From the NCBI GenBank assembly GCA_000806015.1, contig JWKY01000007.1, forward strand, positions 1-63,106: 63,106 bases of DNA. The letters run 5' to 3'. A model generated the notes under the pieces. The model saw only the letters and a list, made by a program, of their open reading frames with translations, was not told the origin of the DNA and ran no database searches. Numbering within the stretch: the stretch's first letter is position 1; every line of letters starts with the position of its first letter. This stretch comes from an archaeon GW2011_AR19 (GTDB lineage: Archaea > Nanobdellota > Nanobdellia > Pacearchaeales > GW2011-AR1). Made by a program: the position numbers and the translations under genes. This document shows, in pieces, positions 4,660 through 55,461 of the stretch.

Positions 4660-4674
4660 TTTTTGTTTAGTTAT

Positions 4675-8671: not shown

Positions 8672-8672
8672 C

Positions 8673-9431
8673 TTAATTGTTTTTAAACAATAAGCAAGGA
8701 TTTATCTTAAACTGCAACATTTTTGCAGATTCCCTTCCCGCATCTCCGCCTTTTCTTTGCATCCCTATTTGTCCAATTTTTAAACTGCCTTCATTTGTAA
8801 CTCTTACATCCCCCTGTCCAAAAATATTCATAACCGTGTTAATGTCTTTTAAAACCCATTCATAGCTCTCTTCATTTTTCTTCAAAATAACAAGCATCCA
8901 ATCTGCCGAAAATTTACCTCTTCCTTTTAAAATATCCGATATAATTAAAATCTTATTTTTAGAAAAGAAATTAATAATTTTATCTCTTTCGCTTTCAGAA
9001 ATCTCTGTTAATAACATTCTTCTTGAATCTTTTAATTTTACTTTTTTTCTTGGTTGAATTTTTCCAGTGAATAATTTTAAGATTTCTTCAATCTCTTTTG
9101 AAATATTCCACATTTTAACATATTTGTCAATTTCTCTTTTATCAATTTGATTAAAACCTTGGGAATTGCTAACTAACTTTACTGACAAATTTTCGCAATC
9201 AATTGCGTCTTTTAATTTTATTGTAACTTGAACTTGAACATCTGTTTTATAGCCGCCAGATATTTTAATTGCTTTAACATATTCAATTTCTTCTAAAAAA
9301 TAACCCATAATTTTAAGCCACTCTTGAGCAACTTTATCCTTTTTCCAATTATTAAATCTCTTAATGACTTTTTCTTCATTTCTAAAACCGCCCTTTGCTG
9401 TTTCAGAACCTAATAATTTCTTTTCATTCAT
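8673..9431 (-). CDS. Putative type II restriction endonuclease
   Basis: Sits between the m5C methyltransferase and vsr with 1-nt spacers. The C-terminal ...SAKMLQFKINP recalls, from memory, the end of MspI-type enzymes. Specificity is not established. Confidence 0.5.
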   Translation of the reverse strand: MNEKKLLGSETAKGGFRNEEKVIKRFNNWKKDKVAQEWLKIMGYFLEEIEYVKAIKISGGYKTDVQVQVTIKLKDAIDCENLSVKLVSNSQGFNQIDKREIDKYVKMWNISKEIEEILKLFTGKIQPRKKVKLKDSRRMLLTEISESERDKIINFFSKNKILIISDILKGRGKFSADWMLVILKKNEESYEWVLKDINTVMNIFGQGDVRVTNEGSLKIGQIGMQRKGGDAGRESAKMLQFKINPCLLFKNN

Positions 9432-9432
9432 T

Positions 9433-23800: not shown

Positions 23801-24371
23801 TTAGAATAGCCCATTCAGGTCTGAATGTCCCGCAATTAATTTCAATTTTTTCAAGTTCTTCATCCGGAACATTAACAAGAGTTTCTCTTATTTCTGTCGG
23901 GAAAAGTCTTTTTTTGCCTTTATAAAAAGTTGTTGGTTTGTCTAATTTAACTTTTTCCTGAAGACTCAAGCAGTAAGGGCATTTTTTCTTGTCCCTCGCT
24001 CTTTTTGCTCTTTTACTTGGAGAATATTTTTCCAATTCTTTTTCTTCAAGCATCAACTTGCCGCAACTTTGACAAAAAGCTCTTAAAACTAATTCAACTA
24101 AAGGAATATATTTCAAATGCATTATTGATCTGGCTAAATCAATACTTCCGGAATGTCCAAGACATTCTTTAAGTCTGTCTCCGCAGGTTCTGCATCTTAC
24201 TCCGGGATCAATTGCTCCAAGCCTTAAATCCATTAATCCGCCGTCAACAGGATATCCATCTATATCATAAAGTTCCGGCGTCACAATTTTTGCAACTGAA
24301 AGTTTTTTTATCTCTTCCGGACTAAGTAAAGAAAAACTTATTTCTCCTATTTTTTTTCTTATTGGTTTCAT
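20886..24371 (-). CDS. rpoA: RNA polymerase subunit A, unsplit (A' and A'' parts in one 1161-aa ORF)
   Basis: The N-terminal zinc region reads RCRTCGDRLKECLGHSG and the catalytic site reads NADFDGDEMN. It also has the bridge-helix region ITQMACCVGQQ and the A''-type trigger loop AQSFGEPSTQMALNVFHFAGVAE..GLPRLIEIFDARK. No stop codon occurs between these parts. Confidence 0.9.
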   Translation of the reverse strand: MKPIRKKIGEISFSLLSPEEIKKLSVAKIVTPELYDIDGYPVDGGLMDLRLGAIDPGVRCRTCGDRLKECLGHSGSIDLARSIMHLKYIPLVELVLRAFCQSCGKLMLEEKELEKYSPSKRAKRARDKKKCPYCLSLQEKVKLDKPTTFYKGKKRLFPTEIRETLVNVPDEELEKIEINCGTFRPEWAILTSLLVPPVTVRPSIILENGERSEDDLTHKLSDIIRANQRLWENLNAGAPEVIIEDLWDLLQFHVTTFFDNTVSKIPPARHRSGQPLKTITERIKGKEGRIRKNIAGKRVNYAGRTVISPDPFLKINEVGIPYEIAKIITVAETVNDLNIKKLIKLIEKGEDYPGANYIMRPDGKRKKISQELKEEIIAEISQGYIVERHLQDGDIVLFNRHPSLHRGSLMAHFVKVLPGKTFRMHPAVCTPYNADFDGDEMNIHSPQTEEARAEAKILLDVKKNLMSPKNNTNLIGCVQDSITGNYLLGLNEFSKEDANQLLYQSGLDFEPVKKKISGTELFSMILPKIDFSNDSIKIKDGEIIKGVIDKTTFGVEDGALIKKIDKDFGREEAFDALTKAFNLGKTYLTQHGITACVEDFDLKESVIEETEEIIKKSEKRTKEIIESYENKSLEIIPGKTSEESREIKILQVLNEVRTKIGSIVKEKFPKENPVNSMIKAGGGGNILNITQMACCVGQQALWGKRIDIGFTQRTLPFFKKNDLSPKARGFIKNSFIKGLRPDEFFFGSITGRDSLMDTALRTPKSGYLYRRLANAFQDLRAEYDGTVRDSNNRIIEFKYGDDNKDVSELHTGGNIVPGEALGLVTAQSFGEPSTQMALNVFHFAGVAEMQVTMGLPRLIEIFDARKKPSSPKMEIYLNKEYNNEKDAEIFAEKIKEVTLKEVSSEIAINFSKKIIEIKIDKEALKKTHVTIKKIVERLNELNFKAKEKDEMIVLNSDALSFKEIYLLKEKFKNTIISGVKGIKQILILKKENNFVIITLGTNIEEIIKMKEVNKDKIISNDFYEIAEVFGIEAARQLIINEIKYVLNTQGLDIDDHHLKLASDAITNTGQIKGVTRMGIIAQKSSILARATFETPIKQFVNATVKGSKEKLKSVIENIILNQPVPVGTGFPGLLVKVIGPLVKREEDKKTAKKEIVEAVNK

Positions 24372-24386
24372 GGGTATTTTTTAAAT

Positions 24387-24638
24387 TTATTTTATTGCCT
24401 CTTTCAATCTTTTTTCTAAAAAATTAATAGTTCCTTTATTATATCCGCCAATGTAAATACATCTACTTTTTGGACTTGATTTAATTATCGCTCCAGAAAA
24501 TTTATATTGAGAAAGACCACGAGAGGTAGTTTGATAAGTTGATGTTCCTGCGAATAACCATGCATCTGCTCTATTAAATAATTCTTCTGATTTTAATTTA
24601 ATTCTGTAATAAATTCTTTTTTCTATATTTTTTGTCAT
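24387..24638 (-). CDS. Small unknown protein (83 aa), second gene of a two-gene cassette between rpoB and rpoA
   Basis: ORF lying 2 nt after the upstream partner. Its C-terminal YIGGYNKGTINFLEKRLKEAIK is paralogous to the partner's KIEGYSKENMEFIQKTLESLV. Confidence 0.5.
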   Translation of the reverse strand: MTKNIEKRIYYRIKLKSEELFNRADAWLFAGTSTYQTTSRGLSQYKFSGAIIKSSPKSRCIYIGGYNKGTINFLEKRLKEAIK

Positions 24639-24640
24639 TT

Positions 24641-24922
24641 TTATTCTATGTCTCCTTCGCTTAAAATAATTGCACGTCTTTTTTCTGAATTTACAAGCGA
24701 TTCAAGAGTTTTTTGGATAAATTCCATATTCTCTTTGCTGTATCCTTCAATCTTAAATTTTTTTAAATCACTATAAGCAGTAATTTTTTCACTATATATC
24801 TTAAAAGTTAAATTTCCACCTACATTTTTTTCTTTTCCGTTTGTTTCTTTAACATAAGTTCCTAACCAATGAAGTCCATCATCATATTGCCTATCTGTTT
24901 TAGCTCTAATTGTTTCCATCAT
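24641..24922 (-). CDS. Small unknown protein (93 aa), first gene of the cassette between rpoB and rpoA
   Basis: ORF co-directional with the RNAP genes. Confidence 0.5.
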   Translation of the reverse strand: MMETIRAKTDRQYDDGLHWLGTYVKETNGKEKNVGGNLTFKIYSEKITAYSDLKKFKIEGYSKENMEFIQKTLESLVNSEKRRAIILSEGDIE

Positions 24923-24974
24923 TTTATTTTTTATCTTAGTTTTTTGTTCCTTTTTTTTCTAAAAAAGAAACCCA

Positions 24975-27900
24975 TTATTCATATTTATTTTTTAATTTAA
25001 AAGTTGTGTTTATGTGCATTCCCTTTAATTCTTCGACGAGAAGTTTAAAAGCATATGAAATTTCAATAATTTCAACATCTTCACTTTCACATTTTGGACA
25101 CATTATTTTTCCTCTTATCTTATCGTCTATTGCTGTTGAACCGCATCTAACGCAAATTGGAAGAATTATTTTATCTGAATCATATCTTTCTTTTAATAAT
25201 AATGAAGACCCATGAGCAATCAATGCCTGTTGTTCCATTTCACCAAGTCTTAATGCGCCGCCGCGAGACCTTCCTTCAATTGGCTGTCTTGTTAATAATG
25301 CAATTTTACCCAAAGCTCTTCCGTGCATTTTATTGCTAACCATATATTTTAATTTTAAATAATATAAATTTCCTAAAAATATTTTTGACACCATTTTTTT
25401 CCCGGTAATTCCATTGTACATTGTTTCTTTCCCATCAAATCTAAATCCTAATTCTTCTAATTGATCTTCTAATTCTTTTTTGTCTGACCCAAAAAAAGAA
25501 GTCCCGTCTATAATTTTTCCTTTTAATGAACCAACTTTGCCGGCCAATAATTCAAGTAAATATCCTACAGTCATACGGCTTGGTAATCCATGAGGGTTAA
25601 AAATTATATCCGGCTTATTTCCTTTTGAAGTAAAAGGCATATCTTCTTCAGGAACAATTAATCCAATAACTCCTTTTTGTCCATGCGATGTTGCAAATTT
25701 GTCGCCTAATTCAGGAATACGCTGGTCGCGGGTTTTAACCTGAATAACTTTATTTCCTTCATTATCTTTTGTTATAAAAACAGCGTCAACAATTCCTTTT
25801 TCTTCCTGCCTCATTGTTACGCTGGATTCTTTTTTTGTTCTTATTGAAATATCTCTTGCTTCTGATAAAAATTTAGGAGGAGAAACTTTTCCAATCAAAA
25901 TTTCTCCTTCATTTATTTCTGCTTCAGGATAAACAAGACCATCGCTTTCCAAATAACGATATAATTTTTCCATTCTATATCCTGAAGTATCTTTTTCAGG
26001 AATGGCAATTTCATCTTTTAGCCCGCCGGCATAATTCATTTCAATAGCAGAATATGGTCTGAAGTAAAAGCTTCGTCCAACTCCTCTGTCCACTCCGCCT
26101 TTATTCAGCACAAGAGCGTCTTCCATATTATACCCTTCATAAGTCATAATACCGACGATTAAATTTTGTCCTGCAGGATAAATGTCAAGAGCATCATAAA
26201 CAAAACTCCTGACAATTGGTTTTTGAGGATATTGTAAAATTGAAACATCTGTATCTAATCTGCATAAATAATTAGCAGAATACAAACCTAAAGCCTGTTT
26301 TTGCGTCTTGCTCCCGCGATTTAAACGAGAGCTTTGATTATGATTTCCGTATGGAACTAAACTTGTAATTGCGCCAAATAAAGAAATAGGGTCAATTTCA
26401 AGATGAGTATGTTCTGGAGTTAATTCTTCTTCAAATAATGAAACAAGCGCATTTTCTTCTTCAGACGCGTCAATATATTCAATTAATCCTTTTTCAATTA
26501 AATCTTCCCAATTCAAATTTCCTTGCTGTATTTGAATTAAGTGATTGTTGTTTATTCTTGGAATTCCATTATCAACGATAATTAAAGGTCTTAATACTCT
26601 TCCGGCTTCACTTGAAAATCTAATTGTTTCAAATCCATGATCATTTCTTATACTAATTTGCTCCGGCAATCCTCCTTCACGTCTTTTTTCTCTTAATCTT
26701 TTTGCAAATTCGTCGTTATCTTTTACAGTTCCAATAAACCTTCCATTTAAAACAACGTCTTTTCCTTCAATTGCTTCTTTATCTAATCCTTCTTCTTCTA
26801 AAACTTTAATTATTTCTTCTTCATTCATTTTTGTTCTTGTAGAAACTTTGCTTAATATTGCCAAATTTTTTCTTAAACCAATTTCAGTTCCTTCAGGAGT
26901 TTCAATTGGACAGAATCTTCCATAATGCGTCGGGTGAAGTGTTCTTGCTTTGAAATTTTCCTGATCAGACGGAAGCATACTTGAAATTCTCTGCAACTGA
27001 GAAATTGTTGCTAAATAATTTGTTTTATCCATGTTTTGTGTTATTCCGGATCTCTCGCCAGTCCATGCCCCCGTTGCAATAGCAGATTCAACTCTATGAG
27101 AAAACAGCGTCGATTTTGCTAAAACTTTTATTGAAAAATAATTTTTCCTTTTTACTGATTTTTGAAGAGAATATTTAATATCTCTTATTAAAATTCCTAA
27201 ATTTACTTTGAATAAAGTTGCTAAAAGATCTCCTGAAAGTCTGACTCGCTTGTTTGCATAATGGTCTTTGTCTGTTTTTAATTCCGGGTTGTCTTTTGCA
27301 ATTAAATAATGTTTTATTAATTTGCATAAAGTAATTGCTTTTTTTGTTCTATCTTCTTTTTTCTGCCCGATATGCGGAAAAAGATATGAATCAATTCTTG
27401 ATTTTACTCTTTCAACAATTTCTTTTTTTGTTCCCTGTAAATTTGTCTTTTCAGCAATATACATTATCGCATCTTCTTTTGTAACAATATTGACAAATTC
27501 ATAAAGATTGACAATAACGCTGTCATTTTCTTTTCCAATATATTTTGCAATATCTGATTCTTTTGTTAATCCAAGAGATTTTAATAAAACAATTGCAGGT
27601 AAATCTTTGAATCTGCTGAATGAAAGATTAAACAATCCATCTTTTCCCTCGTTGAGAGTTATTGGAATTCTGTAAGTTCCTCTCAAAGAAAACATTTTCA
27701 GGACTAATACCCCGTTTTTTCCGTACTCTATAAAAAATTGGTTTTCAGCCAAGTCTTCTGCCATAATCATGACTCTTTCATTTCCTTTAATTATAAAATA
27801 CCCGCCGGGATCTTTGGGATCATTATAATTTGCTATTAATTCTTCACGGGACATTCCATGAGTATTGCATGCTTTGCTTTTTACCATAATCGGAATTTTT

Positions 27901-28232
27901 CCAATTTCTACAATTTCAGAATCAGTTTGCCCATCTTTTTTAATAGTTAATTCAATATTAATTGGGGCAGCATAAGTCAAGTCTCTTAATCTTGCTTCAC
28001 TTGGAGTGATAAAAGAAGAACTTCCGTCTGCTTCAATAATTTTTGGTTTTCCAACTTCTATTTTTCCAAGAATTATTTCAAAATCTTCATTGTCCATTGA
28101 ATCATTTATTTCATTGACAATTTCCTGCATTCTATATTCAATAAAATCATTAAATGAAATAACATTTGATTCTACAAGAGAGTGAGTTTTTAGATAATTT
28201 TTAACAATGATGTGCTCGTTTTTTATTTCCAT
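24975..28232 (-). CDS. rpoB: RNA polymerase subunit B (unsplit)
   Basis: Full-length Rpo2 with ..HGQKGV.., GEMEQQALIAHG and a C-terminal zinc ribbon CVRCG...CPKC. The start is set at ATG 28232..28230 (MEIKNEHII), which is preceded by GGAGG; the ORF track extends 16 codons upstream into a duplicated leader. Confidence 0.93.
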   Translation of the reverse strand: MEIKNEHIIVKNYLKTHSLVESNVISFNDFIEYRMQEIVNEINDSMDNEDFEIILGKIEVGKPKIIEADGSSSFITPSEARLRDLTYAAPINIELTIKKDGQTDSEIVEIGKIPIMVKSKACNTHGMSREELIANYNDPKDPGGYFIIKGNERVMIMAEDLAENQFFIEYGKNGVLVLKMFSLRGTYRIPITLNEGKDGLFNLSFSRFKDLPAIVLLKSLGLTKESDIAKYIGKENDSVIVNLYEFVNIVTKEDAIMYIAEKTNLQGTKKEIVERVKSRIDSYLFPHIGQKKEDRTKKAITLCKLIKHYLIAKDNPELKTDKDHYANKRVRLSGDLLATLFKVNLGILIRDIKYSLQKSVKRKNYFSIKVLAKSTLFSHRVESAIATGAWTGERSGITQNMDKTNYLATISQLQRISSMLPSDQENFKARTLHPTHYGRFCPIETPEGTEIGLRKNLAILSKVSTRTKMNEEEIIKVLEEEGLDKEAIEGKDVVLNGRFIGTVKDNDEFAKRLREKRREGGLPEQISIRNDHGFETIRFSSEAGRVLRPLIIVDNGIPRINNNHLIQIQQGNLNWEDLIEKGLIEYIDASEEENALVSLFEEELTPEHTHLEIDPISLFGAITSLVPYGNHNQSSRLNRGSKTQKQALGLYSANYLCRLDTDVSILQYPQKPIVRSFVYDALDIYPAGQNLIVGIMTYEGYNMEDALVLNKGGVDRGVGRSFYFRPYSAIEMNYAGGLKDEIAIPEKDTSGYRMEKLYRYLESDGLVYPEAEINEGEILIGKVSPPKFLSEARDISIRTKKESSVTMRQEEKGIVDAVFITKDNEGNKVIQVKTRDQRIPELGDKFATSHGQKGVIGLIVPEEDMPFTSKGNKPDIIFNPHGLPSRMTVGYLLELLAGKVGSLKGKIIDGTSFFGSDKKELEDQLEELGFRFDGKETMYNGITGKKMVSKIFLGNLYYLKLKYMVSNKMHGRALGKIALLTRQPIEGRSRGGALRLGEMEQQALIAHGSSLLLKERYDSDKIILPICVRCGSTAIDDKIRGKIMCPKCESEDVEIIEISYAFKLLVEELKGMHINTTFKLKNKYE

Positions 28233-28303
28233 TATGCAAAACCTCCTGTTTTGTATTTGATATTTTTTATCATTATGCAAAACCTCCTGTTTTTTATTTC
28301 CAT
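28232..28303 (-). promoter_or_regulatory. Duplicated rpoB translation-initiation region forming a 23-codon uORF that ends in TAATG on the rpoB start
   Basis: The 23-nt cattatgcaaaacctcctgtttt occurs at 28230..28252 and 28271..28293. On the minus strand, ATGGAAATAAAAAAC occurs at both 28303 and 28232. The uORF encodes MEIKNRRFCIMIKNIKYKTGGFA*. Confidence 0.6.
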
Positions 28304-28813: not shown

Positions 28814-28930
28814 GGCTCCGTAGCTCAGTTTGGTAGAGCACCGGACTTTTATGCGAAAACAAGTTTTCACGTGCTTCGTGAAAATCACAAAGCAATCCGG
28901 GTGTCGCGGGTTCAAATCCCGTCGGGGCCA
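28814..28930 (+). tRNA. tRNA-Lys (anticodon TTT) with a 43-nt intron at position 37/38 (about 28852..28894)
   Basis: The hand fold gives acceptor GGCTCCG/CGGGGCC, D arm GCTC-AGTTTGGTA-GAGC and anticodon stem CCGGA/TCCGG. The anticodon loop is CT-TTT-A[intron]A and the T arm is GCGGG-TTCAAAT-CCCGT. Confidence 0.85.
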
Positions 28931-33681: not shown

Positions 33682-34062
33682 TTGATGAAAAAAGATTACA
33701 ATGCAGAAATAAAAGAATTAACTGCGAAATTATCCAAGAATAGTTCAATTCTTGCGATTTATCTTTTTGGAAGTTATCCTGAAAATTTTCGCCCAATGTC
33801 GGATATAGATATTTGCGTTATTGGGCAATTAAATAAAATTCAAAAAAAGAAGATTTTAAGGGATTTTTCAGAGAAATTTGATATTTCGTTTTTTGATGAA
33901 CTGCCAATTACAATAAAAATCAAGGTTTTCAGCGAAGGAAAAGAACTTTTTTCCAAAGATAAAGAAAAATTGCATGAGCTTAAATGGAAAACTTTTTATC
34001 AATACAGAGAAATTGCTCCATTCATACAACAAAGAATAGATTCTATGCTTCAAAATGCTTAA
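33682..34062 (+). CDS. Minimal nucleotidyltransferase (MNT) antitoxin
   Basis: Contains LAIYLFGSYPENFRPMSDIDICVIG and overlaps the HEPN gene by 8 nt. Confidence 0.75.
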   Translation: MMKKDYNAEIKELTAKLSKNSSILAIYLFGSYPENFRPMSDIDICVIGQLNKIQKKKILRDFSEKFDISFFDELPITIKIKVFSEGKELFSKDKEKLHELKWKTFYQYREIAPFIQQRIDSMLQNA

Positions 34063-34468
34063 CAAAGAAAGATTAAATTTTATTGTTGAAGATGTAAACA
34101 TTTATTTTGAAAAGTTAAGAAAAATTTCTCCGACAAAAGAAAATTTGAATAATGATGAAAAATTTCTATCAACTTCTATGGCAATTTTTCAAATTCTAAA
34201 TAGAATGATTGATTTAGCAGACGAAATAGTTAAAATTGAGAAGATTGGCTATCCTCTTCAAATAAAAGATTTATTTACCTTTTTAAAAGAAAAAAACATT
34301 ATTGACAAAAAACTTGAAAGAAAGCTAAAAGATTTAGTAATTTCAAGAAATAAATTTTCTCACAGATACGGAAATATAAACAAAGAAGAAATTTTATTAA
34401 TATTAAAAGAATTAGATTCTGTAAAGAATTTTATTAAAGTTATTCTCGCGCATTTAAATAAAAAATAG
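34055..34468 (+). CDS. HEPN (DUF86-type) toxin
   Basis: Has the R-x4-H motif ISRNKFSHRYG. Confidence 0.7.
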   Translation: MLNKERLNFIVEDVNIYFEKLRKISPTKENLNNDEKFLSTSMAIFQILNRMIDLADEIVKIEKIGYPLQIKDLFTFLKEKNIIDKKLERKLKDLVISRNKFSHRYGNINKEEILLILKELDSVKNFIKVILAHLNKK

Positions 34469-43402: not shown

Positions 43403-44356
43403 TTAATCTAATTTATTTTTAGAAATAACTCCGCCTGAAATATTGAAGAAATATTTCAGAGATTCATTGTCATCTTTATCCCACACATAAAAAGAATACT
43501 TCCCGTCTTTAAACTTTATGTGGGAATAACTAAAAATCCCCTGATTGTCAACTTTTTTTAAAGGAGTTTGCCTTCCTTCTTCATCAGCAACAAAAGCCTG
43601 CATGCCTTCGGGAGAATCATCTTTGAAAACCACATATTTCTCTCCCATTTTCTTAAGTCTTGGTCTCTTTGATTCAAAAAGAGTTTCAAGAAAACTTTTA
43701 TTGTTTTTTACTTTCAAAGAAAATTCTTCTTCAGTATTGCTTTTTACGTTATAGGAATTCATATTTTCCCTGACTGCTTCTTCCAAATTTCTTTCATCAG
43801 ATAATTTATCGTAAGATTCTTTTAATTTAGCATATTTTCCTTTCCATTCAGAATCTCCGCTTTTTAGACTAAGAGCATAATCTTTTTCCAATTCTGAGTA
43901 TTTTTTTTCTAAATTATTAGTTTCCAGAATTTTTTTCGCAATTTCTTTTTCTACAAAAGCATATACTTTAAAAAGTGAATCATATTTTTCCAGAAGCCAA
44001 ACTTTATCTGTGTTGTCCGCGATTTTGTATTTTTCTAATTCACCTGAAATTTTTTTCTTTGCTCCTTTAATACTGCCTAATTCTTGATTTAGTTTTTTAA
44101 TTTCTGAATTGGTTTTTGAATACAAATTTAAAACTCTTTCAAGGGAATCAGAATAAAAATTTGTTTTATTCTTTGAATCAATATAACTATTTTTAAGATT
44201 ATTATTATTAAAAGCTAAATTCAAGCTATCATCTCTTAAAGAATTAATTTCTGTTTTTTGTTTATCAAGAGTGTTGTTTTGTTTGTAGTTGCACCAGCCA
44301 AGAGATAATAATCCAATCAAACTAATTCCTAAAAGAGTATTTTCTAGTTTTCCCAT
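43403..44356 (-). CDS. Membrane-anchored coiled-coil protein
   Basis: N-terminal TM segment followed by long heptad-like K/E/L/N-rich sequence. Confidence 0.4.
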   Translation of the reverse strand: MGKLENTLLGISLIGLLSLGWCNYKQNNTLDKQKTEINSLRDDSLNLAFNNNNLKNSYIDSKNKTNFYSDSLERVLNLYSKTNSEIKKLNQELGSIKGAKKKISGELEKYKIADNTDKVWLLEKYDSLFKVYAFVEKEIAKKILETNNLEKKYSELEKDYALSLKSGDSEWKGKYAKLKESYDKLSDERNLEEAVRENMNSYNVKSNTEEEFSLKVKNNKSFLETLFESKRPRLKKMGEKYVVFKDDSPEGMQAFVADEEGRQTPLKKVDNQGIFSYSHIKFKDGKYSFYVWDKDDNESLKYFFNISGGVISKNKLD

Positions 44357-44434: not shown

Positions 44435-46288
44435 TCACAAAACAATTTCAAATTCCCCTAATTCTTTTTTCAGCAGCTCAAAAACTTTTGGATTAACTTT
44501 GAATTCTCTTTTGCCTTTTTGTTTTTTAATTTCTTTTTCAACTTCATCCATCTCGCAATCTTCAATTTTATCTGTTATCTTTTTTGTTTTCATGTCCTTG
44601 AATAAAAAGCTTATTCCTTCAAAATTTAATAATTCAGAAGTTCTTTCAAGACCTTTTTCCTTGTATTTAATGAGCATTTTTCCTTTTTCTAAAGGAAGCA
44701 ATTCACATCTTTGAGAATATTCTATTAATATATTTATTAAAAAATTGGCATTTTTTCTGGCACTGTCAACTTTATGCGAATTCAGTTTTCCTTTTTTAAA
44801 ATCAGCTCTGGCTTTAACTATTTCATTTAATATTCTTAAATGCTGATTGGTAAACTTTCCCACTTTGACAAAATTTTTTTCAAAAGATTCAATAATTGCT
44901 GTTTGCGATTTTTGATTTGTTAATTGCCCCAATAATTCAAAAACATCTTTGTAAATTTGTTCAATGGTTTTCTCGCTTGTTCTTTTTTCAATTTGCTCTC
45001 TTAACTCTTTCATTCTTTTAATATAATCTTCCATATTTAATAGAAGCCTGTCAACTTCTTTTCCCGAAACTTTTTTAATTTTGCCGTGTTCATATCCTTT
45101 ATAATATTTTATAACAATTTCTTCAAGAATGTCTAAATATTTTTTTTCCAGCATTTTTTCCTTATCAACAAAAATATTTTTCATTTCAGAAACAACCTGT
45201 TTTGGCGTCGGTGGAGGTAATCCATAAAGCATAAGCAAAGCCTGGCTTGGAGTAATGACTCCCCAATAAATCTCTCCGATGACAATTTCTAATAATGTTC
45301 TTTCAGCTCTTTTGGTTGTATTATCTCCCATAGACATAAACATATCAATAGATTCCGGGGAGGGTTTAAGTCTGCCCATTTTTAATAAAGTTTTCCAGGG
45401 CATAAAAGTCCCTCGGTCATAAAGCGGAACTCCGTCGCGAATAAAAGTAAACATTACCGGATGAGCATCTTTTACACCTTCCCAAAAATCAGTTAAAAGA
45501 TAAATCTGCGGTTCAAGCTTGTTTTCAACGCCTGCAAGAGCAGAGGCTTCTGCAACATACTGATAAATAATTCCTCTTAACCTTTCTTTTAATTCCAGGC
45601 GGGGCATTCTTTTAACGTCGGTATCATTAATAATAACAAAAACATCAACATCTGAAGTTTTTATCGCTTCTCCCCTTACTAAACTCCCCGCAATAACATA
45701 TGACACAACATATTTCTCAAATTTTTGCAAAACTAATGACTTGTGAATTTCTGCAACTCTCAACGCTCCGAGAATCCCTTTATCATAAAGTGGAAAAGAC
45801 ATTGCTATTGCCCCATTTAATTCAAATTTTTGGTCAAGGCAGATTTCCCAAATATTAGACGGAGTCCTGATATGAAGCCAAATTTTTGGATGCTCCGCTT
45901 TTTCAAACTGTTTTAAAATTTCAGATTTTATTTTAGGAATTTCTTTTTCTTTTTCGTCCGGCACAATTAAATGCAGATGCGTGTGTTTTTCCGCGTCTTT
46001 AGGAACATCTTCCTCTTCAATAAAAAACCTGATTGCCTGCGGAGGCAAAATACTTATTGCTTTAATATATGGAAATTTTTTTATAATAAAATTTTTTAAT
46101 TTTTCAAGTTCTTTTTTGGTTTTTTCTATTTCTTTTTTAGCTTGTTCTGGATTAGGAAATTGTTGCGCAGATTCTTTAATAGATTCACCGACACGTTTTT
46201 TTTCTAAATTCATTTCCGGACTAGCTGATGTTTCAGCATACTTTTTGTTTAAATTCATCTCCGGAATTTCGTTTTTTTTATCGTCCAT
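44435..46288 (-). CDS. Large nucleotidyltransferase-domain protein (617 aa)
   Basis: Has the NTase motif VIAGSLVRGEAIKTSDVDVFVIIND and lies 18 nt downstream of the sigma-like gene. Confidence 0.55.
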   Translation of the reverse strand: MDDKKNEIPEMNLNKKYAETSASPEMNLEKKRVGESIKESAQQFPNPEQAKKEIEKTKKELEKLKNFIIKKFPYIKAISILPPQAIRFFIEEEDVPKDAEKHTHLHLIVPDEKEKEIPKIKSEILKQFEKAEHPKIWLHIRTPSNIWEICLDQKFELNGAIAMSFPLYDKGILGALRVAEIHKSLVLQKFEKYVVSYVIAGSLVRGEAIKTSDVDVFVIINDTDVKRMPRLELKERLRGIIYQYVAEASALAGVENKLEPQIYLLTDFWEGVKDAHPVMFTFIRDGVPLYDRGTFMPWKTLLKMGRLKPSPESIDMFMSMGDNTTKRAERTLLEIVIGEIYWGVITPSQALLMLYGLPPPTPKQVVSEMKNIFVDKEKMLEKKYLDILEEIVIKYYKGYEHGKIKKVSGKEVDRLLLNMEDYIKRMKELREQIEKRTSEKTIEQIYKDVFELLGQLTNQKSQTAIIESFEKNFVKVGKFTNQHLRILNEIVKARADFKKGKLNSHKVDSARKNANFLINILIEYSQRCELLPLEKGKMLIKYKEKGLERTSELLNFEGISFLFKDMKTKKITDKIEDCEMDEVEKEIKKQKGKREFKVNPKVFELLKKELGEFEIVL

Positions 46289-46306
46289 ATTTTAAATAAT
46301 TATTAT

Positions 46307-46861
46307 TTACTTATAAAGATTACTGATTGGAAAATCTCTGCTAAACTCTTCAGAGATCATCTTCCCCAAATTCTTTCTTCCTCTTAAATACGAGCTCCTA
46401 AGAGTAACCTCAGGTATATTTAATTCCCGACTTGCTTGTTTATAAGAAACTTTATTTTTTAAGAGACGTAATTTTATTATTTCTTTTTGAGATTGCGGGA
46501 GTTTTTCTATTGAATTATTTAAAAAATTTTGCACCAATTTTCTATCAAAATATTTGTCTTGGCTGATAAAGGTGTTTTGCTCCAGATAATTGAGAGAATC
46601 ATCACTTTCAGAAATTAATTTATTTTTCAAAGGATTTCTTTTTTCTTTTCGCGTATGGTCAATAGCTGTATTTTTAACTATTTCCTGAACCCATCCATAA
46701 AATGATTTTCCTTTTCTTTCATCATATTTTTCAAGATTACGAAAAACTTTAATTAGAGAGTCCTGAATCACATCTTCCCTATCTTCTTTGTTTGGAAGAT
46801 AATTATATATCTCGCTCAACAGAGAATTTCTCTTAATTGATTCAAATTTTTTTAATGCCAT
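46307..46861 (-). CDS. ECF-type sigma-70-family protein (regions 2 and 4)
   Basis: The region 2 pattern is EDVIQDSLIKVFRNLEKYDERKGKSFYGWVQEIVKNTAIDHTRKEKR. The region 4 HTH is LPQSQKEIIKLRLLKNKVSYKQASRELNIPEVTLRSSYLRGRKNL. Confidence 0.7.
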   Translation of the reverse strand: MALKKFESIKRNSLLSEIYNYLPNKEDREDVIQDSLIKVFRNLEKYDERKGKSFYGWVQEIVKNTAIDHTRKEKRNPLKNKLISESDDSLNYLEQNTFISQDKYFDRKLVQNFLNNSIEKLPQSQKEIIKLRLLKNKVSYKQASRELNIPEVTLRSSYLRGRKNLGKMISEEFSRDFPISNLYK

Positions 46862-46962
46862 GCTTTTAAGAATTTATTTACCTTTAAATATCTTTGTATT
46901 TTAATTACTTTAAAGTTATTACAAAAAGAAAGATTTAAATATATCCTATTATATCTTGTCTT

Positions 46963-47706
46963 ATGAGATACGAACAAAAACAAAAAAAAATTGAACAAAA
47001 AACTTATGATTTTATAGATGAAATAGCAAACGAATTTGATTTAAAGGTTCCATTTTATCCGGAGATTTATTGGGTTGGTCAGAAATTAAAATTCGAAAAA
47101 CTTGGAATTAAAAAACAATATAAAAAAGAATTTCAAGAGATAAAAGAAAAAAAAGGAGCAATTTATTTTTATGAACCTAAGATAATTTTAATTTCAGAAA
47201 ATGTTAATTCATCAATAGCAGAAGAAGCGGGTCATTTTGTTCATTATATTAATTCTAAAGTCAATCCAAATAAAATGACTATGAATAATTATGTTGATCA
47301 TGAATCCTGGAAAATTTTATCAGAAGCAATAGGTTATTTTTGTTCAAAATTAATCAATCCTGAAAGAAAGCCTCTTTATGGCGAATTTAAAAATTTTGAG
47401 AATTATGTAAAAGATTTTTGCAATAAAAAAGATGTAAAAATAGAAAATCTTGAAGAAATAGTTGAAGATAATCTTAAAGTTCTGCCAAGTTTTTTTGTTT
47501 ACAAACACGGCTATGATTTGGGAGAAGAATTGTACAATCATTACATTTCCGGAAACATAAATAAAAAACAAATTAAAAATTTAATAAAAAATCCATTTAA
47601 AGAAGAGTTTTCTGCAACAAAAAAATTTCTCTATTTGAGGGAAAAATACCTTAAAAATAATTCACGTTTCTTTAAAAAAAAGGCTAACCAAAACCTTAAA
47701 AATTAA
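46963..47706 (+). CDS. Hypothetical protein with a possible degenerate metallopeptidase-like motif
   Basis: 247-aa ORF with AEEAGHFVH, which is not a canonical HExxH. It is divergent from the sigma-like gene. Confidence 0.35.
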   Translation: MRYEQKQKKIEQKTYDFIDEIANEFDLKVPFYPEIYWVGQKLKFEKLGIKKQYKKEFQEIKEKKGAIYFYEPKIILISENVNSSIAEEAGHFVHYINSKVNPNKMTMNNYVDHESWKILSEAIGYFCSKLINPERKPLYGEFKNFENYVKDFCNKKDVKIENLEEIVEDNLKVLPSFFVYKHGYDLGEELYNHYISGNINKKQIKNLIKNPFKEEFSATKKFLYLREKYLKNNSRFFKKKANQNLKN

Positions 47707-47736: not shown

Positions 47737-47807
47737 GGTCCGTTAGTCCAATGGCAGAACAGCTCGTTTACACCGAGCAAACACAAGTTCGATTCTTGTA
47801 CGGACCA
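47737..47807 (+). tRNA. tRNA-Val (anticodon TAC), no intron
   Basis: The hand fold gives acceptor GGTCCGT/ACGGACC, anticodon stem GCTCG/CGAGC with loop TT-TAC-AC, and T arm ACAAG-TTCGATT-CTTGT. The D stem is imperfect. Confidence 0.8.
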
Positions 47808-47863
47808 TTTTTTGAAATGTATTCTTAAATGAAAAGAAAAAGAATACATTTTCCATCAAGGAT

Positions 47864-48051
47864 GGCTAAATATTTTAAAGCGGAGCGAGAAACAAAAAAC
47901 AGGAAATTTTTTGATAAACCGCCCAAGCGTGGTCGGTTTAAAGGAAAGGTTTCGTGGGCAATTTCGCGAGCGAAATTAATTCACAACGGAAGTAGTCGTG
48001 AATTAAGGAAAACCTTGGTTTTCATTCGGTTCGATGAAGAAGGGACCATTT
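47864..48051. repeat. Mosaic repeat element ending in a decayed copy of the tRNA-Val 3' end
   Basis: Its ends (ggctaaatattttaaagcg ... aggaaaaccttggttttc..cggttcgatgaagaagggaccattt) match the element at 52176..52270. Its interior carries reverse copies of the 39103-family units. Confidence 0.7.
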
Positions 48052-48080
48052 ACCAAAAAGATTATATAGTTTATTTTTCT

Positions 48081-48290
48081 ATGAAGATTATGGAATCGGT
48101 AAATTTGACGGATATTTATAAGAAACTAAAAGAAATAGAAAGAAATATGGCAACAAAAAGAGAGTTAGCTCAAACTATGGAAACTTTTTGTATCCTATCT
48201 AATGAAGATACTTTGCATCAAATCGAATCCAGCGAAGAAGATATTAAAAGAGGAAAATTCAAACAAATAAGTTCTGTTGAAGATTTATAA
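48081..48290 (+). CDS. Putative antitoxin (69 aa)
   Basis: Uses the internal ATG of ORF 47829..48290 (MKIMESVNLTDIYKKLKEIERNM..). Its stop overlaps the RelE start (TAATG). Confidence 0.5.
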   Translation: MKIMESVNLTDIYKKLKEIERNMATKRELAQTMETFCILSNEDTLHQIESSEEDIKRGKFKQISSVEDL

Positions 48291-48571
48291 TGGAGTGGAA
48301 AGTTATATCAACTGAAACTTTTTCTAAACAATTCAAAAAACATAAAAAAGATGGAGAGTTTGTAAAAATCCTCAATAACAAAATCAAAAGATTAAAAGAA
48401 AATCCAGAAAATGTTGGAGGTTATTTATCTGGAAAATTGCATGGTTATAAATCCACCAGAATTTTAAGGAAATTAAGACTTGTTTTTAAAATATTAATGG
48501 AAAAACAAGAAGTTCATTTAATGGCTATTGACCATAGAAAGTTTGATTATGAGAGATTTGATTTTGATTAA
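48290..48571 (+). CDS. RelE/ParE-superfamily toxin
   Basis: Contains ..FSKQFKKHKKDGEFVKILNNKIKRLKENPENVGGYL...RKLRLVFKI..EKQEVHLMAIDHRK. Confidence 0.7.
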   Translation: MEWKVISTETFSKQFKKHKKDGEFVKILNNKIKRLKENPENVGGYLSGKLHGYKSTRILRKLRLVFKILMEKQEVHLMAIDHRKFDYERFDFD

Positions 48572-51881: not shown

Positions 51882-52009
51882 GCGTGAGTAGTTCAGCGGC
51901 AGAACGTCTCGTTGCCAATGTGGGAGAACCAATGTTCCTTGACAATCAACCTCCTTTAAGAGAGAAAAGCAAACACGAGATAACCCGAGTTCGAATCTCG
52001 GCTCGCGCA
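51882..52009 (+). tRNA. tRNA-Gly (anticodon GCC) with a 57-nt intron at 37/38 (about 51918..51974)
   Basis: The hand fold gives acceptor GCGTGAG/CTCGCGC, D arm GTTC-AGCGGCA-GAAC and anticodon stem TCTCG/CGAGA. The anticodon loop is TT-GCC-A[intron]A and the T arm is CCGAG-TTCGAAT-CTCGG. Confidence 0.8.
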
Positions 52010-52270: not shown

Positions 52271-52568
52271 TTTAAATTTTTATTCCTGTAGGGCTTTAGC
52301 CAAATCTATAAATTTTTTATTAAAAAATCCAATTAACTTCTTGTTAAGAATTGCAGTGCTATTAAAAAATAATTTGCTAAAAGTACAAAAATAAAAATTT
52401 AAATGGTTTGAGAAATTTTTTTAGCATTAAACTTAAAATAAGATAGATCTTTAAATCCCCGTTGGTAAAAATATTTAAACACTATTAAAAAATTACAGAA
52501 TAGTGTTTAAACTTGATAATAACAACATAAACAAAAGATTTATAAACCCCTTTTCCATAACATTTAAC

Positions 52569-54083
52569 ATGACAAAAAATAATCTTGTAAAAAAGATTTT
52601 GAATGCAGGAAAAAAAGTTGCGGGAAAAACTTTTTTATACGGAAGTTTAATCACAGCGCCTTTTTTATATTCTAGCAATGCTAATGCTCAAGTTTCTACA
52701 TTAAATGAAAAAGGAAGCGCATTAGGAACTAAAGTTTTGCAAAAAGATATGCTTAATGCTTATGACATTCCGGGATATGTTGTTATAGATAAATCTGATA
52801 AAGATAAAACTCCTATTGAAACAGTAAAAGTTTATCCAACTTTTTCAACTATGAGGGGAAATAATGAACTTATCCCTAGAGTAGTCTTTGGCACTGAGAA
52901 AGCTCAAATTGATGGAAAAGATGCTGATGTATTCAAATATACTTCAGATAATGATACTAAAAAAAATATTGAAGATCTTTTTGTAAAAAAAGGAGAAGGT
53001 GGAGGACTTATAACACTTAGTGCAACTGAAGCGCAAACAGCAGGATTCCATACAATTACAACAGACAATGGAACTTTTGTTTATTTCCCTCTTGATTCAA
53101 CTAATAATTTAGGTGATGAAATGAAAGAAAAAATCAAAAAAGGAAAAAATATTGGAGTTATTTTCCCTGCAGATAATATGGTTATTTATGAAGATATTAA
53201 TCCTAAAGATAGATCAATAGAATATTTAGTAGGAATGCCTAATAAATTATTTTTACTTAATTTAGATGAAAATGATATTGCTGATCAAGCTCTTCATCAA
53301 GAAGGAATAGATGCATTAGATTCTTTAGGAAGAAAATATTTATCTTCTGAAAAAGCCGAGTCTATTTATTTGGCTGGAAATTTAATTAATGGAAAAGCAA
53401 ATGATTTTAAGAATTTTGCCTTTTTAGATGGAGTCCAGCCTGATGAAGAAAAAACTCCTTCAAATTTAAATGGAAGAATAAAACTTGGAGTAGGATATAC
53501 CATTCCAGCAGGATTTGTCGGTGAAATTAATCCGCAGGTTCAACTTGGAAAAAAATCTTTTTTAGGTCCTTATGTTTCATTTTCAAATTCAACAAAATCT
53601 CTTGAAAATCTAACTCAAGAAGACGGATTCAGAGAAGTTGTTAGTGTTCCTGCAAAAATGTATTTTGTAAGCACAGGAACAGAAATAAAAGAAAATACTA
53701 AAACTACAAATAATCTTAGTTTAGGTTTAGCTCTTTCATATCTTGCTTCTCCAAATTTAGAAGCATTTGTTAAAGCAGGATTTATCGGACAAGAAACAAA
53801 AAAAACAATGACAAGTTCAGGCGAAGAATATATGGAAATTGACGGAGTTAAAGATCAATCATCTGTACAATCTTTTAATGAAACAAATAATTTCACAGAA
53901 AGAAAAATGTCTGGTTATGTTGGCGCTGGAGTAGAATATTCTCCTTTCGCTAAAAAAGATAATGCTTTAAAAAATATTTCGGGTTATGGTGAAGCAGGTT
54001 ATATAATTGGTTCAGGAGCAATGGGTTCATTAGGAGTAAAATATAATTTAAATAAATCAAATAAAGAAAAAAAATCAGAATAA
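52569..54083 (+). CDS. Secreted protein with a C-terminal region resembling a bacterial outer-membrane beta-barrel
   Basis: The start is set at MTKNNLVKK. The signal peptide is ..LITAPFLYSSNANA|QV. The last 200 or so aa show alternating-hydrophobic strands (GRIKLGVGYTIPAGF, LSLGLALSYLAS, YVGAGVEYSPF, GYGEAGYIIGSGAMGSLGVKYNL). Confidence 0.5.
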   Translation: MTKNNLVKKILNAGKKVAGKTFLYGSLITAPFLYSSNANAQVSTLNEKGSALGTKVLQKDMLNAYDIPGYVVIDKSDKDKTPIETVKVYPTFSTMRGNNELIPRVVFGTEKAQIDGKDADVFKYTSDNDTKKNIEDLFVKKGEGGGLITLSATEAQTAGFHTITTDNGTFVYFPLDSTNNLGDEMKEKIKKGKNIGVIFPADNMVIYEDINPKDRSIEYLVGMPNKLFLLNLDENDIADQALHQEGIDALDSLGRKYLSSEKAESIYLAGNLINGKANDFKNFAFLDGVQPDEEKTPSNLNGRIKLGVGYTIPAGFVGEINPQVQLGKKSFLGPYVSFSNSTKSLENLTQEDGFREVVSVPAKMYFVSTGTEIKENTKTTNNLSLGLALSYLASPNLEAFVKAGFIGQETKKTMTSSGEEYMEIDGVKDQSSVQSFNETNNFTERKMSGYVGAGVEYSPFAKKDNALKNISGYGEAGYIIGSGAMGSLGVKYNLNKSNKEKKSE

Positions 54084-54084
54084 A

Positions 54085-55461
54085 ATGAAAACAAAAAATA
54101 TTTTAAAATCAATTTTCGGAATAGTTTTCTTATTAGCTTTTGCTTCAATGGTTTCTGCAGGAATTTGGTTTGATTTTGAATCAGACCCAAGCGCAAGTTC
54201 AATGACAGTTTCTCAAGGAGCCCAGCTAAATTTAGTTTTAACAGCTTCTTCACATAATAATATAATTGTTTCTAATGAAAAACTTGAAGCAGTTGGAATA
54301 GGAACACTTAAATCATGGAATGAACCGGGTTCACAATTCGGCTCTACACATTTATGGACTAAAACACATACTTTAGATACTAATATTCTTGGCGCAGGAA
54401 CTTTCACACTTAGATTTTCAGCTCAGACAAGCGCAGGAACAGAATCTGCAGATTTAACTCTTGTAGTAAATCCCGTTGATACAACTGCTCCGGTAATTAC
54501 TATATTAGGAACCAATCCATTAACTATTGCTCTTGGAAGTGTTTATACTGACGCTGGCGCAACTGCCTTGGATAATCTTGACGGAGATTTAACTTCACAA
54601 ATTCAAATAACAAATAATGTTAACACAGCTGTTGCTGGAACTTATTCTGTTATTTATTCAGTTTCAGATTTAGCTGGAAATTTAGCAACTGCAACAAGAA
54701 CAGTAACTGTTTCTGCAAGTTTAGATATTAATGCTCCGGCAATTATAATCTCAAGCCCTGTAAATGCGCAAACTTACACAACTGCTGTAACTAATATTAC
54801 TTATATTCCAAATGATGCTGAAGGAAATTTAAACCAATGCTGGTACTCATTAAATGGCGGAGTTACAAATTCTACTGCAGTATCTTGCAGCAACGGAGTA
54901 TCAAATTTATTCTCAGGTTTAGTTCCGCAGCAAGGTTCAAACACCTGGACTGTTTGGGCAAATGATTTATCTGGAAATTTAGGAACTGCTTCAGTTACAT
55001 TTACTGTAAACGATTTAGTTGGTCCAGTGATTACTGCTGTCAGCCCAATAAATAATGAAACATTAGATGACACAGACGTTACATTAAAAGTTTCTGCAAA
55101 TGAAGACGCTGTTGTTAAATACAGCTTGAATGGTGCAGCAAATGTGACAATGACAAAAACATCAAACTTCGCATTTGAATCAGCTTTATTAGATCTTGAC
55201 GACGACGAGGAGTACACAGTTATTTACACTGCAACAGATTTAATGGGAAACTCAGCAAGCTTAACAATAAAATTTAATATTGATGAAGACGCTTCAAACA
55301 ATGCAGTCGACGATACTTTCTTCAGCGCAGAAGACGAAAATGACGGAATCACAATAGAGCCTGCAATTGATTTGACTGACGAAGAAGCTAAAAAGTTAAA
55401 CTGGTGGCAAAGATTCATCAACTGGTTAGCAAGATTATTTGGATTAGAAGAAGTTTACTAG
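54085..55461 (+). CDS. Secreted surface protein with Ig-like (DUF5011-type) domains
   Basis: A signal peptide is followed by DTTAPVITILGTNPLTIALGSVYTDAGATALDNLDGDLTSQI...AGTYSVIYSVSDLAGNLATATRTVTV and by further AP.I repeats. Confidence 0.65.
   Translation: MKTKNILKSIFGIVFLLAFASMVSAGIWFDFESDPSASSMTVSQGAQLNLVLTASSHNNIIVSNEKLEAVGIGTLKSWNEPGSQFGSTHLWTKTHTLDTNILGAGTFTLRFSAQTSAGTESADLTLVVNPVDTTAPVITILGTNPLTIALGSVYTDAGATALDNLDGDLTSQIQITNNVNTAVAGTYSVIYSVSDLAGNLATATRTVTVSASLDINAPAIIISSPVNAQTYTTAVTNITYIPNDAEGNLNQCWYSLNGGVTNSTAVSCSNGVSNLFSGLVPQQGSNTWTVWANDLSGNLGTASVTFTVNDLVGPVITAVSPINNETLDDTDVTLKVSANEDAVVKYSLNGAANVTMTKTSNFAFESALLDLDDDEEYTVIYTATDLMGNSASLTIKFNIDEDASNNAVDDTFFSAEDENDGITIEPAIDLTDEEAKKLNWWQRFINWLARLFGLEEVY

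Follow-up and report, generated by a model that had tools for sequence, protein, structure and literature searches.

The 63,106-nt contig JWKY01000007.1 of archaeon GW2011_AR19 (assembly GCA_000806015.1; Nanobdellota, Pacearchaeales), referred to below as the window, carries a gene encoding a sigma-70 homologue of the extracytoplasmic function (ECF) type directly upstream of a gene encoding a large nucleotidyltransferase (NTase). Sigma factors are a textbook hallmark of bacterial transcription, whereas archaea use TBP, TFB and TFE. The present analysis revealed that this sigma-NTase adjacency recurs, with a patchy distribution, in at least 12 diverged lineages, and that the sigma gene evolves fast and mosaically under purifying but relaxed selection. 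We tentatively propose, with some reserve, that its product may have become a domesticated local DNA-binding regulator. The two genes are as follows:

46307..46861, minus strand: ECF-type sigma-70 homologue, 184 aa (sigma2 at about residues 1-75, disordered linker at 76-105, sigma4 at about residues 107-176)
44435..46288, minus strand: DPANN nucleotidyltransferase, 617 aa (Pol-beta-type NTase domain at about residues 187-244, long helical region weakly resembling a HEPN fold, C-terminal beta domain)

Identity of the sigma-like protein

The two open reading frames (ORFs) are separated by 18 nt; their lengths, this gap and the NTase domain are exactly as described in an earlier reading of the window made from the sequence alone (hereafter the sequence-only reading). 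In the sigma protein, Pfam recognized region 2 (Sigma70_r2, PF04542, E 1.5e-15, 57.2 bits for a cut-off of 24, covering positions 8-70 of the 71 of the profile) and region 4 (Sigma70_r4_2, PF08281, E 5e-7, 29.7 bits for a cut-off of 25.7), and found no region 1 or region 3 match in its 184 residues. The general NCBIfam model of the family, TIGR02937 (sigma70-ECF), matched well above its cut-off (E 9.5e-21, 74.1 bits for 42.9), and none of the NCBIfam ECF subfamily or equivalog models reached its own cut-off. No other ORF of the window matches an ECF profile. The protein is thus the short two-domain form, with a disordered linker of 30 residues between sigma2 and sigma4.

Structural comparisons gave the same picture. 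A sequence search of the PDB returned SigW of Bacillus subtilis as the top match (3e-10), with AlgU and RpoE among the best ones that followed. The AlphaFold2 model, computed from archaeal relatives, shows a confident sigma2 (residues 1-75) and a helical sigma4 (107-176) on either side of the disordered linker; all 23 matches obtained with it in the PDB at E<=0.001 are ECF sigma factors (probability 1.00), and its region 2 superposes on that of E. coli sigmaE bound to -10 DNA (PDB 2MAP) at 1.1 A over 65 residues. The ORF therefore encodes a genuine ECF-type sigma-70 protein by sequence and fold; the regions 2 and 4 announced by the sequence-only reading were borne out by Pfam, by TIGR02937 and by both PDB searches, and the profile search that it had set as a check did find region 2.

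The residues that are best conserved across the archaeal clade are D30 and Q33 (DxxQ of region 2.2) and W57 and N64 (W...N of region 2.3/2.4). The DxxQ motif is retained in most of the 12 lineages and W57 in all 12. In bacterial ECF sigmas, these residues fall in the core-binding and -10-recognition regions. The sigma proteins of P0124, P0126, P0127, P0131, P0242 and L012 share an N-terminal M.L..L.D.EL helix and a linker motif, and some of them have a C-terminal tail. According to the alignments, the allele of the window lacks about 20 N-terminal residues, i.e., the first sigma2 helix, which are present in the archaeal relatives P0124-P0131 and L012; the ORF cannot be extended any further.

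Archaeal host and integrity of the contig

The sequence-only reading had considered both the host and its RNA polymerase to be archaeal, and the NCBIfam models agree. The window carries a cluster RpoB - RpoA'/A'' - S12 - S7 - aEF-2 - aEF-1alpha for which archaeal models are the best ones: RpoA' reaches 1056 bits (cut-off 819), A'' being also matched, aEF-2 925 bits (cut-off 738) and aEF-1alpha 633 bits (cut-off 502), while RpoB, with 1294 bits, is slightly below the full-length cut-off (1402), its B'' half reaching 495 bits (cut-off 355). The only polymerase genes of the window are these archaeal RpoA'/A'' and RpoB genes, located at 20886-28280. Two tRNA genes that presumably bear introns are also in agreement with an archaeal host. 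It can be added that A' and A'', which are two genes in most archaea, are here a single ORF of 1161 aa (20886-24371, minus strand; A' at residues 4-812 and A'' at residues 804-1130 according to NCBIfam).

Could the sigma gene be an artefact (contaminant or chimera), come from an integrated virus, or encode a protein aimed at the polymerase of a host or partner bacterium? The closest non-archaeal relatives are found in bacteria, with identities that do not exceed 35%, as these explanations would have it. However, the sigma gene has a host-like composition (GC 0.288, GC at third codon positions 0.238, tetranucleotide profile inside the normal range for the window). Furthermore, the same join between the sigma gene, the NTase gene and the gene of p247, a protein encoded on the other side of the sigma gene, is found in the NCBI Candidatus Pacearchaeota metagenome-assembled genome (MAG) GCA_016180565.1 and in several independent Logan/ENA assemblies. 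Composition and independent assemblies together rule out contamination and chimerism for practical purposes, so that the integrity check advised by the sequence-only reading ended in favor of the contig. Pfam and NCBIfam scans of the window ORFs detected no integrase or virus gene near the sigma gene. A viral origin was rejected: IMG/VR provided only four relatives, of 30% identity or less, none of them beside an NTase gene. Archaeal promoters are present on both sides of the gene, and no obvious N-terminal signal sequence was seen by eye in the sigma protein. Overall, this whole group of explanations is very improbable, and the factor acting on a bacterial partner's polymerase that the sequence-only reading had envisaged is largely refuted with it.

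Distribution and adjacency to the NTase gene

When 1.84 billion representative proteins were searched exhaustively without a profile, a single cluster proved more than 50% identical to the sigma protein, its own, the next hit being 40% identical. The closest named relative is a 'sigma-70 family RNA polymerase sigma factor [Candidatus Pacearchaeota archaeon]', and the nearest relatives are P0124, P0126, P0127, P0131, P0242 and the protein of the Nanoarchaeota MAG L012. Outside the archaeal clade, the best named relatives come from Bacteroidota, Patescibacteria and Planctomycetota, at identities (35% at most) too low to single out a donor.

The comparison of loci requires two other features of the window:

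46963..47706, plus strand: p247, 247 aa, divergent from the sigma gene
47737..47807, plus strand: tRNA-Val(TAC), conserved upstream anchor of the variable sigma slot

Seven of the eight lineages ascertained through their sigma gene (the window group, L011, L012, L172, L173, L174/175 and L181) carry the NTase gene directly downstream on the same strand, the exception, L182, being a 1.5-kb contig of uncertain clade membership. The NTase survey included 55 distinct lineages with at least 700 nt of upstream sequence, among which 49 were ascertained through the NTase. Five of these 49 (L109/110, L112, L137, L145 and L167) have an ECF sigma gene, in every case directly upstream of the NTase gene and on the same strand (gap of -13 to 67 nt, and of up to 107 nt over all the adjacent pairs), and about 44 (about 90%) have no adjoining sigma gene. 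Three long contigs (39-765 kb) that carry the NTase gene are also devoid of sigma gene. They had led to the idea that the adjacency is incidental, which was overturned by the same arrangement in P0124/L011 and in L012. The distribution check called for by the sequence-only reading thus detected the adjacency in many diverged lineages, irregularly spread. Furthermore, the upstream neighbor of the sigma gene is variable (p247, tRNA-Val, tRNA-Ala, tRNA-Lys and others) and therefore the sigma-NTase junction is the conserved one. This recurrent adjacency is a real link of some kind, functional or positional.

The slot between tRNA-Val and the NTase gene is empty in L096, L098 and L099, holds the sigma gene only in L012 and L181, and holds p247 and the sigma gene in the window, L001 and L172. 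Homologues of p247 adjoin the sigma gene in L001-5 and L172-176, and the NTase gene without sigma in L104, L147/148 and L155/157. In L093 (about positions 720-800), the tRNA-Val gene beside the NTase gene is split by an insert of about 45 nt that is absent from L096, L098 and L099 and may be an intron.

The monophyly of all NTase-linked sigmas was considered and not retained, as a profile of the core clade ranks those of L109, L112, L137, L145 and L167 no higher than bacterial ECFs. The most diverged one, that of L167, still scores 58 bits against an ECF profile, and both Pfam domains are recognized in most copies. One ancient gain followed by fast divergence is indistinguishable from several gains; with identities of 14-30% over 180 residues, any tree would be weak.

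The NTase as a possible partner

The adjacency might reflect a functional pair, in which the NTase would modify or sequester the sigma protein, as a nucleotidylating analogue of an anti-sigma factor, or in which the sigma protein would regulate the NTase gene in cis. The sequence-only reading had proposed such a regulatory pair and had noticed that the NTase gene occupies the place where an anti-sigma gene is expected. Only this junction is indeed conserved in the 12 or more lineages, whose upstream neighbor varies; the region 5' of the NTase promoter is often rearranged in lineages devoid of sigma, yet the sigma gene, if present, is always there; and both in the window and in L011, the NTase promoter region contains the sigma stop codon.

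On the other hand, the NTase is a conserved DPANN protein that is not specific to sigma: it is present and equally conserved in the lineages, about 90% of them, that have no sigma gene. It has its own promoter everywhere, and Pfam recognizes no anti-sigma domain in it. More than 3000 homologues were found at 60-93% identity, those with a name being all Nanoarchaeota, Pacearchaeota or 'archaeon' records. The Pfam domain NTP_transf_2 (PF01909) covers residues 187-244 (9.5e-7) and is found in all 32 members of a diverse alignment, which has 111 invariant columns and in which the Pol-beta motif G[SG]-x(9-13)-DxD (GSLVRGEAIKTSDVDVFV in the window) is almost fully conserved. No HEPN domain of Pfam matched any of these 32 homologues. 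A PDB sequence search found no relative of the NTase, and a fold search indicated a weak HEPN/MNT likeness (7ae9, 2hsb, 2rff), all Foldseek E-values being above 0.1; the structure model is only moderate (pLDDT 70, pTM 0.34). Finally, the adjacency would be explained as well if the genes were simply inherited in a slot that two conserved anchors delimit. The recurrence of the adjacency, which the sequence-only reading could not see, is real, but the NTase is not dedicated to sigma, and the view of it as a substitute for an anti-sigma factor needs correction; we consider a functional pair unlikely. Independently, residues 8-30 or so of the window NTase (46150-46270) contain about 20 extra residues that look like a tandem duplication of 'PEMNL.KK' (IPEMNLNKKY...SPEMNLEKKR), of which the relatives have a single copy.

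The other neighbors provide no better anti-sigma candidate. Besides p247, the following gene was considered:

43403..44356, minus strand: p317, membrane-anchored coiled-coil protein, two genes downstream of the sigma gene

Pfam and NCBIfam scans found no anti-sigma domain in p247, the NTase or p317, all three of which occur elsewhere without sigma, in agreement with the claim that no anti-sigma factor is encoded beside the sigma gene. For p247, no Pfam or NCBIfam match of any kind was obtained, and its presence beside NTase genes devoid of sigma also led to its rejection. For p317, the hydrophobic segment at about residues 7-22 leaves no cytoplasmic N-terminal domain, there is no anti-sigma Pfam match, and homologues are located 3' of the NTase gene in the sigma-less loci L092, L095 and L097-L099.

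Evolution of the sigma gene and of its flanks

Between lineages, sigma proteins are 14-42% identical and NTases 59-93%; for example, the window and L012 share 34% identity for the former and 89% for the latter. In close pairs, the ratio of nonsynonymous to synonymous substitution rates (dN/dS) of the sigma gene is 0.29-0.44 versus about 0.1 for the NTase gene, whose values (0.07-0.13) indicate strong purifying selection. This ratio is unevenly distributed along the sigma gene: between the window and L176, it is 0.76 in region 2 and 0.09 in region 4. The divergence is also mosaic. Between the window and L176, 1000 nt of p247 and spacer contain 7 mismatches, while the initial 350 nt of the sigma gene contain 53, and synonymous divergence (dS) from L002 is about 0.2 for p247 and sigma and 0.7 for the NTase gene; it should be emphasized that strain mixing in metagenome assembly can imitate such mosaics. 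Selection on this fast-evolving, mosaic gene is thus purifying but relaxed. A diversity-generating retroelement was rejected as the source of the hyper-divergent patch: nowhere in the window is the sigma DNA repeated in a template-like manner, and a scan of approximately 40 larger window ORFs revealed no reverse transcriptase.

The presence of the sigma gene varies even among close relatives. The NTases of L012, which has the sigma gene, and of L095 and L099, which do not, are 93% identical, and L012 has the same tRNA-Val and flank as L099 and L098, without any difference. The comparison of L012 with its sigma-less relatives shows a clean indel of about 830 nt, which starts and ends precisely within the interval separating the promoters of tRNA-Val and of the NTase gene. 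In the simplest picture, the sigma cassette has been lost, and probably exchanged, by recombination in a variable slot between two conserved anchors.

Such a picture leads to the explanation that the gene, left over from horizontal transfer, is dispensable, or that it is a cassette maintained by recombination involving the tRNA-Val and NTase flanks, with little or no function. Its patchiness among close relatives, the clean presence or absence of this single gene between the two promoters, the mosaic divergence seen with L176 and L002 and the N-terminal truncation of the window allele would all be expected under this explanation. However, the sigma ORF is intact in 12 of 12 lineages, with no frameshifted or truncated copy among them, no comparison gives a dN/dS of 1 or more, the value being as low as 0.09 in region 4, both Pfam domains are still recognizable in most copies, and a conserved archaeal promoter is maintained upstream. 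A dispensable gene with little or no function is therefore, in our opinion, a rather improbable explanation.

Promoter motifs and a conserved intergenic block

The regulatory features of the locus are as follows:

46881..46890, minus strand: putative TATA box of the sigma gene, TATTTAAAGG, first base 29 nt 5' of the ATG
46932..46942, plus strand: putative TATA box of the divergent p247 gene, GATTTAAATAT, about 29 nt 5' of the ATG
46307..46324, minus strand: B recognition element (BRE) and TATA box of the NTase gene, AGTAATCTTTATAAGTAA, with the box itself at 46310-46317 and 29 nt 5' of the ATG (46288)
46899..46923, minus strand: conserved non-coding block, TGTAATAACTTTAAAGTAATTAAAA, between the divergent TATA boxes of sigma and p247

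BRE/TATA at this spacing is the archaeal promoter geometry that yields leaderless mRNA. A box of the TTTAAA type is found at the same spacing 5' of 11 of the 12 sigma genes displayed, none being seen in L145; from this geometry, the box of the window is a putative promoter that would produce a leaderless or near-leaderless sigma mRNA. The NTase gene is preceded by (A/C)GTAAC-ATTTATAAG, the first T of the box being located 29-30 nt before the ATG, in nearly all of the approximately 90 homologues listed, with or without sigma, and this element probably acts as its own promoter, also for a leaderless mRNA. In the window it overlaps the last five sigma codons and the stop codon (S-N-L-Y-K-stop in the sigma frame); the sigma gene of L011 likewise stops inside this region, and those of L172-174 stop about 20 nt earlier. 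Since the NTase gene has its own promoter, it does not depend on that of the sigma gene, and the co-transcription put forward by the sequence-only reading is not required, nearly every NTase homologue carrying the same BRE/TATA. Read-through from sigma into the NTase gene is possible, because 18 nt are too short for a terminator.

Two other sequences were noticed near the NTase start. Many NTase genes have, just before the ATG, a T-rich stretch ending in CACT (TTTTTTCACT; 46289-46300 in the window), which may be an initiator or 5'-end signal. In L012, the sigma-NTase spacer (1849-1955) contains two copies of a G+C-rich direct repeat of about 18 nt (CCTTCTGTGAACTTGCTC / CCCTCCGTGAAGTCGCTC) in AT-rich DNA, which was not seen in the other loci.

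The core of the conserved block, TG..rTAACT..A.AGT, is invariant in alignments of core-clade lineages whose sigma proteins are only 30-40% identical. By eye, the block is absent from the sigma-less p247-NTase spacers of L104 and L148. Its TAACT motif is located about 52 nt 5' of the sigma ATG, and its AAC triplet is typical of ECF -35 elements. The intergenic alignment shows no conserved ECF-like -10 element (CGT) downstream of it, the -10-like place being occupied by the archaeal TATA box. We regard the block as a candidate operator, to which the sigma-like protein itself might bind, with TGTAATAACTTnAnAGT as candidate binding sequence.

A proposed domesticated regulator or a possible partner of the archaeal polymerase

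The reading that we favor, albeit tentatively, is that a bacterial ECF-type sigma gene would have been acquired long ago by an ancestor of a Pacearchaeota/Woesearchaeota-type lineage (Nanoarchaeota in GTDB). It would then have been 'archaealised', as suggested by its host-like composition, its own BRE/TATA promoter and its leaderless start, and would occupy a slot of variable content, delimited by tRNA-Val on one side and by the promoter of the conserved DPANN NTase gene on the other. The protein may act as a stand-alone DNA-binding regulator, made of sigma2 and of the sigma4 helix-turn-helix, of nearby promoters, alongside TBP/TFB. Its targets would be the divergent promoter of its own gene and p247, through the TAACT..A.AGT block, and possibly the NTase promoter overlapped by its 3' end. 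The reading relies on the purifying selection that is strongest on the helix-turn-helix domain, on the archaeal promoter and on the sigma-associated conserved block. Isolated sigma domains are able to bind DNA without core polymerase, as in 2MAP. Since the polymerase is archaeal only and no anti-sigma factor is found, the protein is most likely not a polymerase subunit. Among the possibilities listed by the sequence-only reading, a gene gained by horizontal transfer and put to new use as a regulator remains the best one, DNA binding, target site and regulatory role being what we infer for it.

Several points weigh against this regulator. Its DNA binding and its regulon are deduced from sequence patterns. 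The operator pattern RTAACTNNANAGTR has a single match in the window, which is the block itself, for 0.13 expected, and 11 of 100 shuffled sequences contain at least one match to this degenerate pattern. The candidate operator belongs to the core sub-clade only and is not found 5' of the sigma genes of L109, L112, L137, L145 and L167. The most conserved residues are those that, in bacteria, bind the core or melt the -10 region, so that a role in polymerase binding would fit them at least as well. The first helix, kept by the relatives, is lost in the window allele. Finally, the patchy presence and a dN/dS three to four times that of the NTase gene would also be compatible with a dispensable gene.

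The conserved residues lead to another explanation, in which the protein would be a true initiation or specificity factor of the archaeal RNA polymerase, docked on the clamp coiled-coil of Rpo1 and redirecting the enzyme to special promoters. This coiled-coil is the homologue of the beta' coiled-coil bound by sigma region 2. It is favored by the position of D30, Q33, W57 and N64 in regions that serve for core binding and -10 recognition, and by a predicted fold that cannot be distinguished from that of polymerase-bound ECF sigmas. However, these four residues may be retained merely for folding, TBP/TFB-type BRE/TATA promoters drive the neighbors and the sigma gene itself, the first sigma2 helix is missing, and the AAC motif has no conserved ECF-like -10 (CGT) downstream. 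To our knowledge, no archaeal polymerase uses a sigma factor. Such a factor is therefore improbable. More broadly, there is only a slight chance that the sigma protein is a working partner of archaeal transcription, either as a specificity factor docked on the polymerase clamp coiled-coil by its conserved region 2.2 surface or as one half of an NTase-controlled (nucleotidylation) pair. If true, it would be the first sigma factor shown to be functional outside Bacteria.

Under the regulator that we prefer as under the other explanations, an intact sigma gene with an archaeal promoter, found at one genomic position across lineages, raises the question of what sigma2 and sigma4 do without a bacterial core polymerase and, more generally, of how a bacterial regulator is re-wired after inter-domain transfer. 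The tRNA-Val/sigma/NTase slot, whose variants cleanly have or lack the sigma gene and which includes a candidate operator, is a small, defined system that can be synthesized and tested in vitro.

Other genes of the window

Other features were noticed in the window and in related contigs. Just past the 3' end of tRNA-Val, a 153-aa ORF is followed by a 93-aa RelE/YafQ-like toxin (47829-48571, plus strand; TIGR00053 1.7e-6, RelE_StbE 6e-6); in the related MAG contig L001, tRNA-Val is directly followed by NYN, and the pair of the window looks like an insertion at the tRNA. A HepT-like ribonuclease (8e-16) encoded after a 126-aa ORF (33682-34468, plus strand) is probably part of an MNT/HepT toxin-antitoxin pair, and a separate small Pol-beta nucleotidyltransferase of 189 aa is encoded at 6879-7448 (plus strand). 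A complete HinP1I-type restriction-modification set (8267-10488, minus strand) includes a C5 DNA methylase (3.5e-108), R.HinP1I (1.6e-79) and a Vsr mismatch endonuclease; the distant contigs L006/L007 have the same trio immediately 5' of their NTase gene. The window (52503-55461, plus strand) also encodes two large proteins with a predicted surface location, one of them with a Bact_surface_Ig-like domain; such a pair is present in L011 as well (2773-5746, minus strand), beside the diverged sigma-NTase pair. Two tRNA genes (28814-28930, 117 nt, and 51882-52009, 128 nt, both on the plus strand) were detected with Rfam and missed by ARAGORN, and presumably bear introns.

Comparison with known systems

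The NTase recalls the type VII toxin-antitoxin system MntA/HepT (COG1708 with UPF0332), with which it shares the Pol-beta motif (GS...DVDVFV) and weak HEPN/MNT fold matches; JGI names its homologues 'predicted nucleotidyltransferase / UPF0332 family'. It differs from this system in being a single multidomain protein of about 600 aa, under strong purifying selection throughout a DPANN group, rather than a small two-gene addiction module.

The sigma protein resembles the bacterial ECF (group 4) factors, such as SigW of B. subtilis, RpoE of E. coli and AlgU of P. aeruginosa, by its sigma2/sigma4 organization devoid of regions 1.1 and 3, its conserved motifs of regions 2.2, 2.3/2.4 and 4.2, its TIGR02937 score above the cut-off and its predicted fold. 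It differs from them by the lack of a bacterial core polymerase in the host and of a co-encoded anti-sigma factor, by its archaeal TATA promoter, by the fact that it reaches no group-level model, by its missing first helix and by identities that do not exceed 40% outside its own narrow lineage. A co-encoded anti-sigma factor is typical of most ECF groups, without being universal. The gene thus belongs to the ECF family by sequence and fold, but its context differs from that of the bacterial factors: the polymerase genes of the window are archaeal, no anti-sigma factor is co-encoded, and the TAACT motif is accompanied by an archaeal TATA box instead of a conserved -10 element.

An initial survey, MiST2 (2009), reported no ECF sigma factors in 67 complete archaeal genomes. 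Thereafter, sigma-70 family genes were reported in DPANN genomes, most often those of Woesearchaeota, with mis-binning excluded; according to the part of that paper devoted to them, no anti-sigma factor was found and the mechanism was left open (Castelle 2021, PMC8204110). A literature search beyond Castelle 2021 retrieved no further report of archaeal sigma factors. The bare fact that sigma-70 genes exist in DPANN archaea is therefore already published. The family described there, fam00359, consists, as far as its sigma passage indicates, of bacterial-type sigma-70 genes on verified DPANN contigs, as is the sigma gene of the window, a possible member of fam00359; the text of the supplement has no match to fam00359 or sigma. 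That passage deals with presence and prevalence and is silent on the NTase linkage, archaeal promoters, mosaic evolution and presence/absence polymorphism. Three points appear to be undescribed in the literature searched: the sigma-NTase linkage, the possession by each gene of an archaeal promoter of its own, and the fast mosaic evolution. Overall, what this work adds to the known DPANN sigma-70 genes is not their discovery but the anatomy of a locus and its evolutionary pattern.

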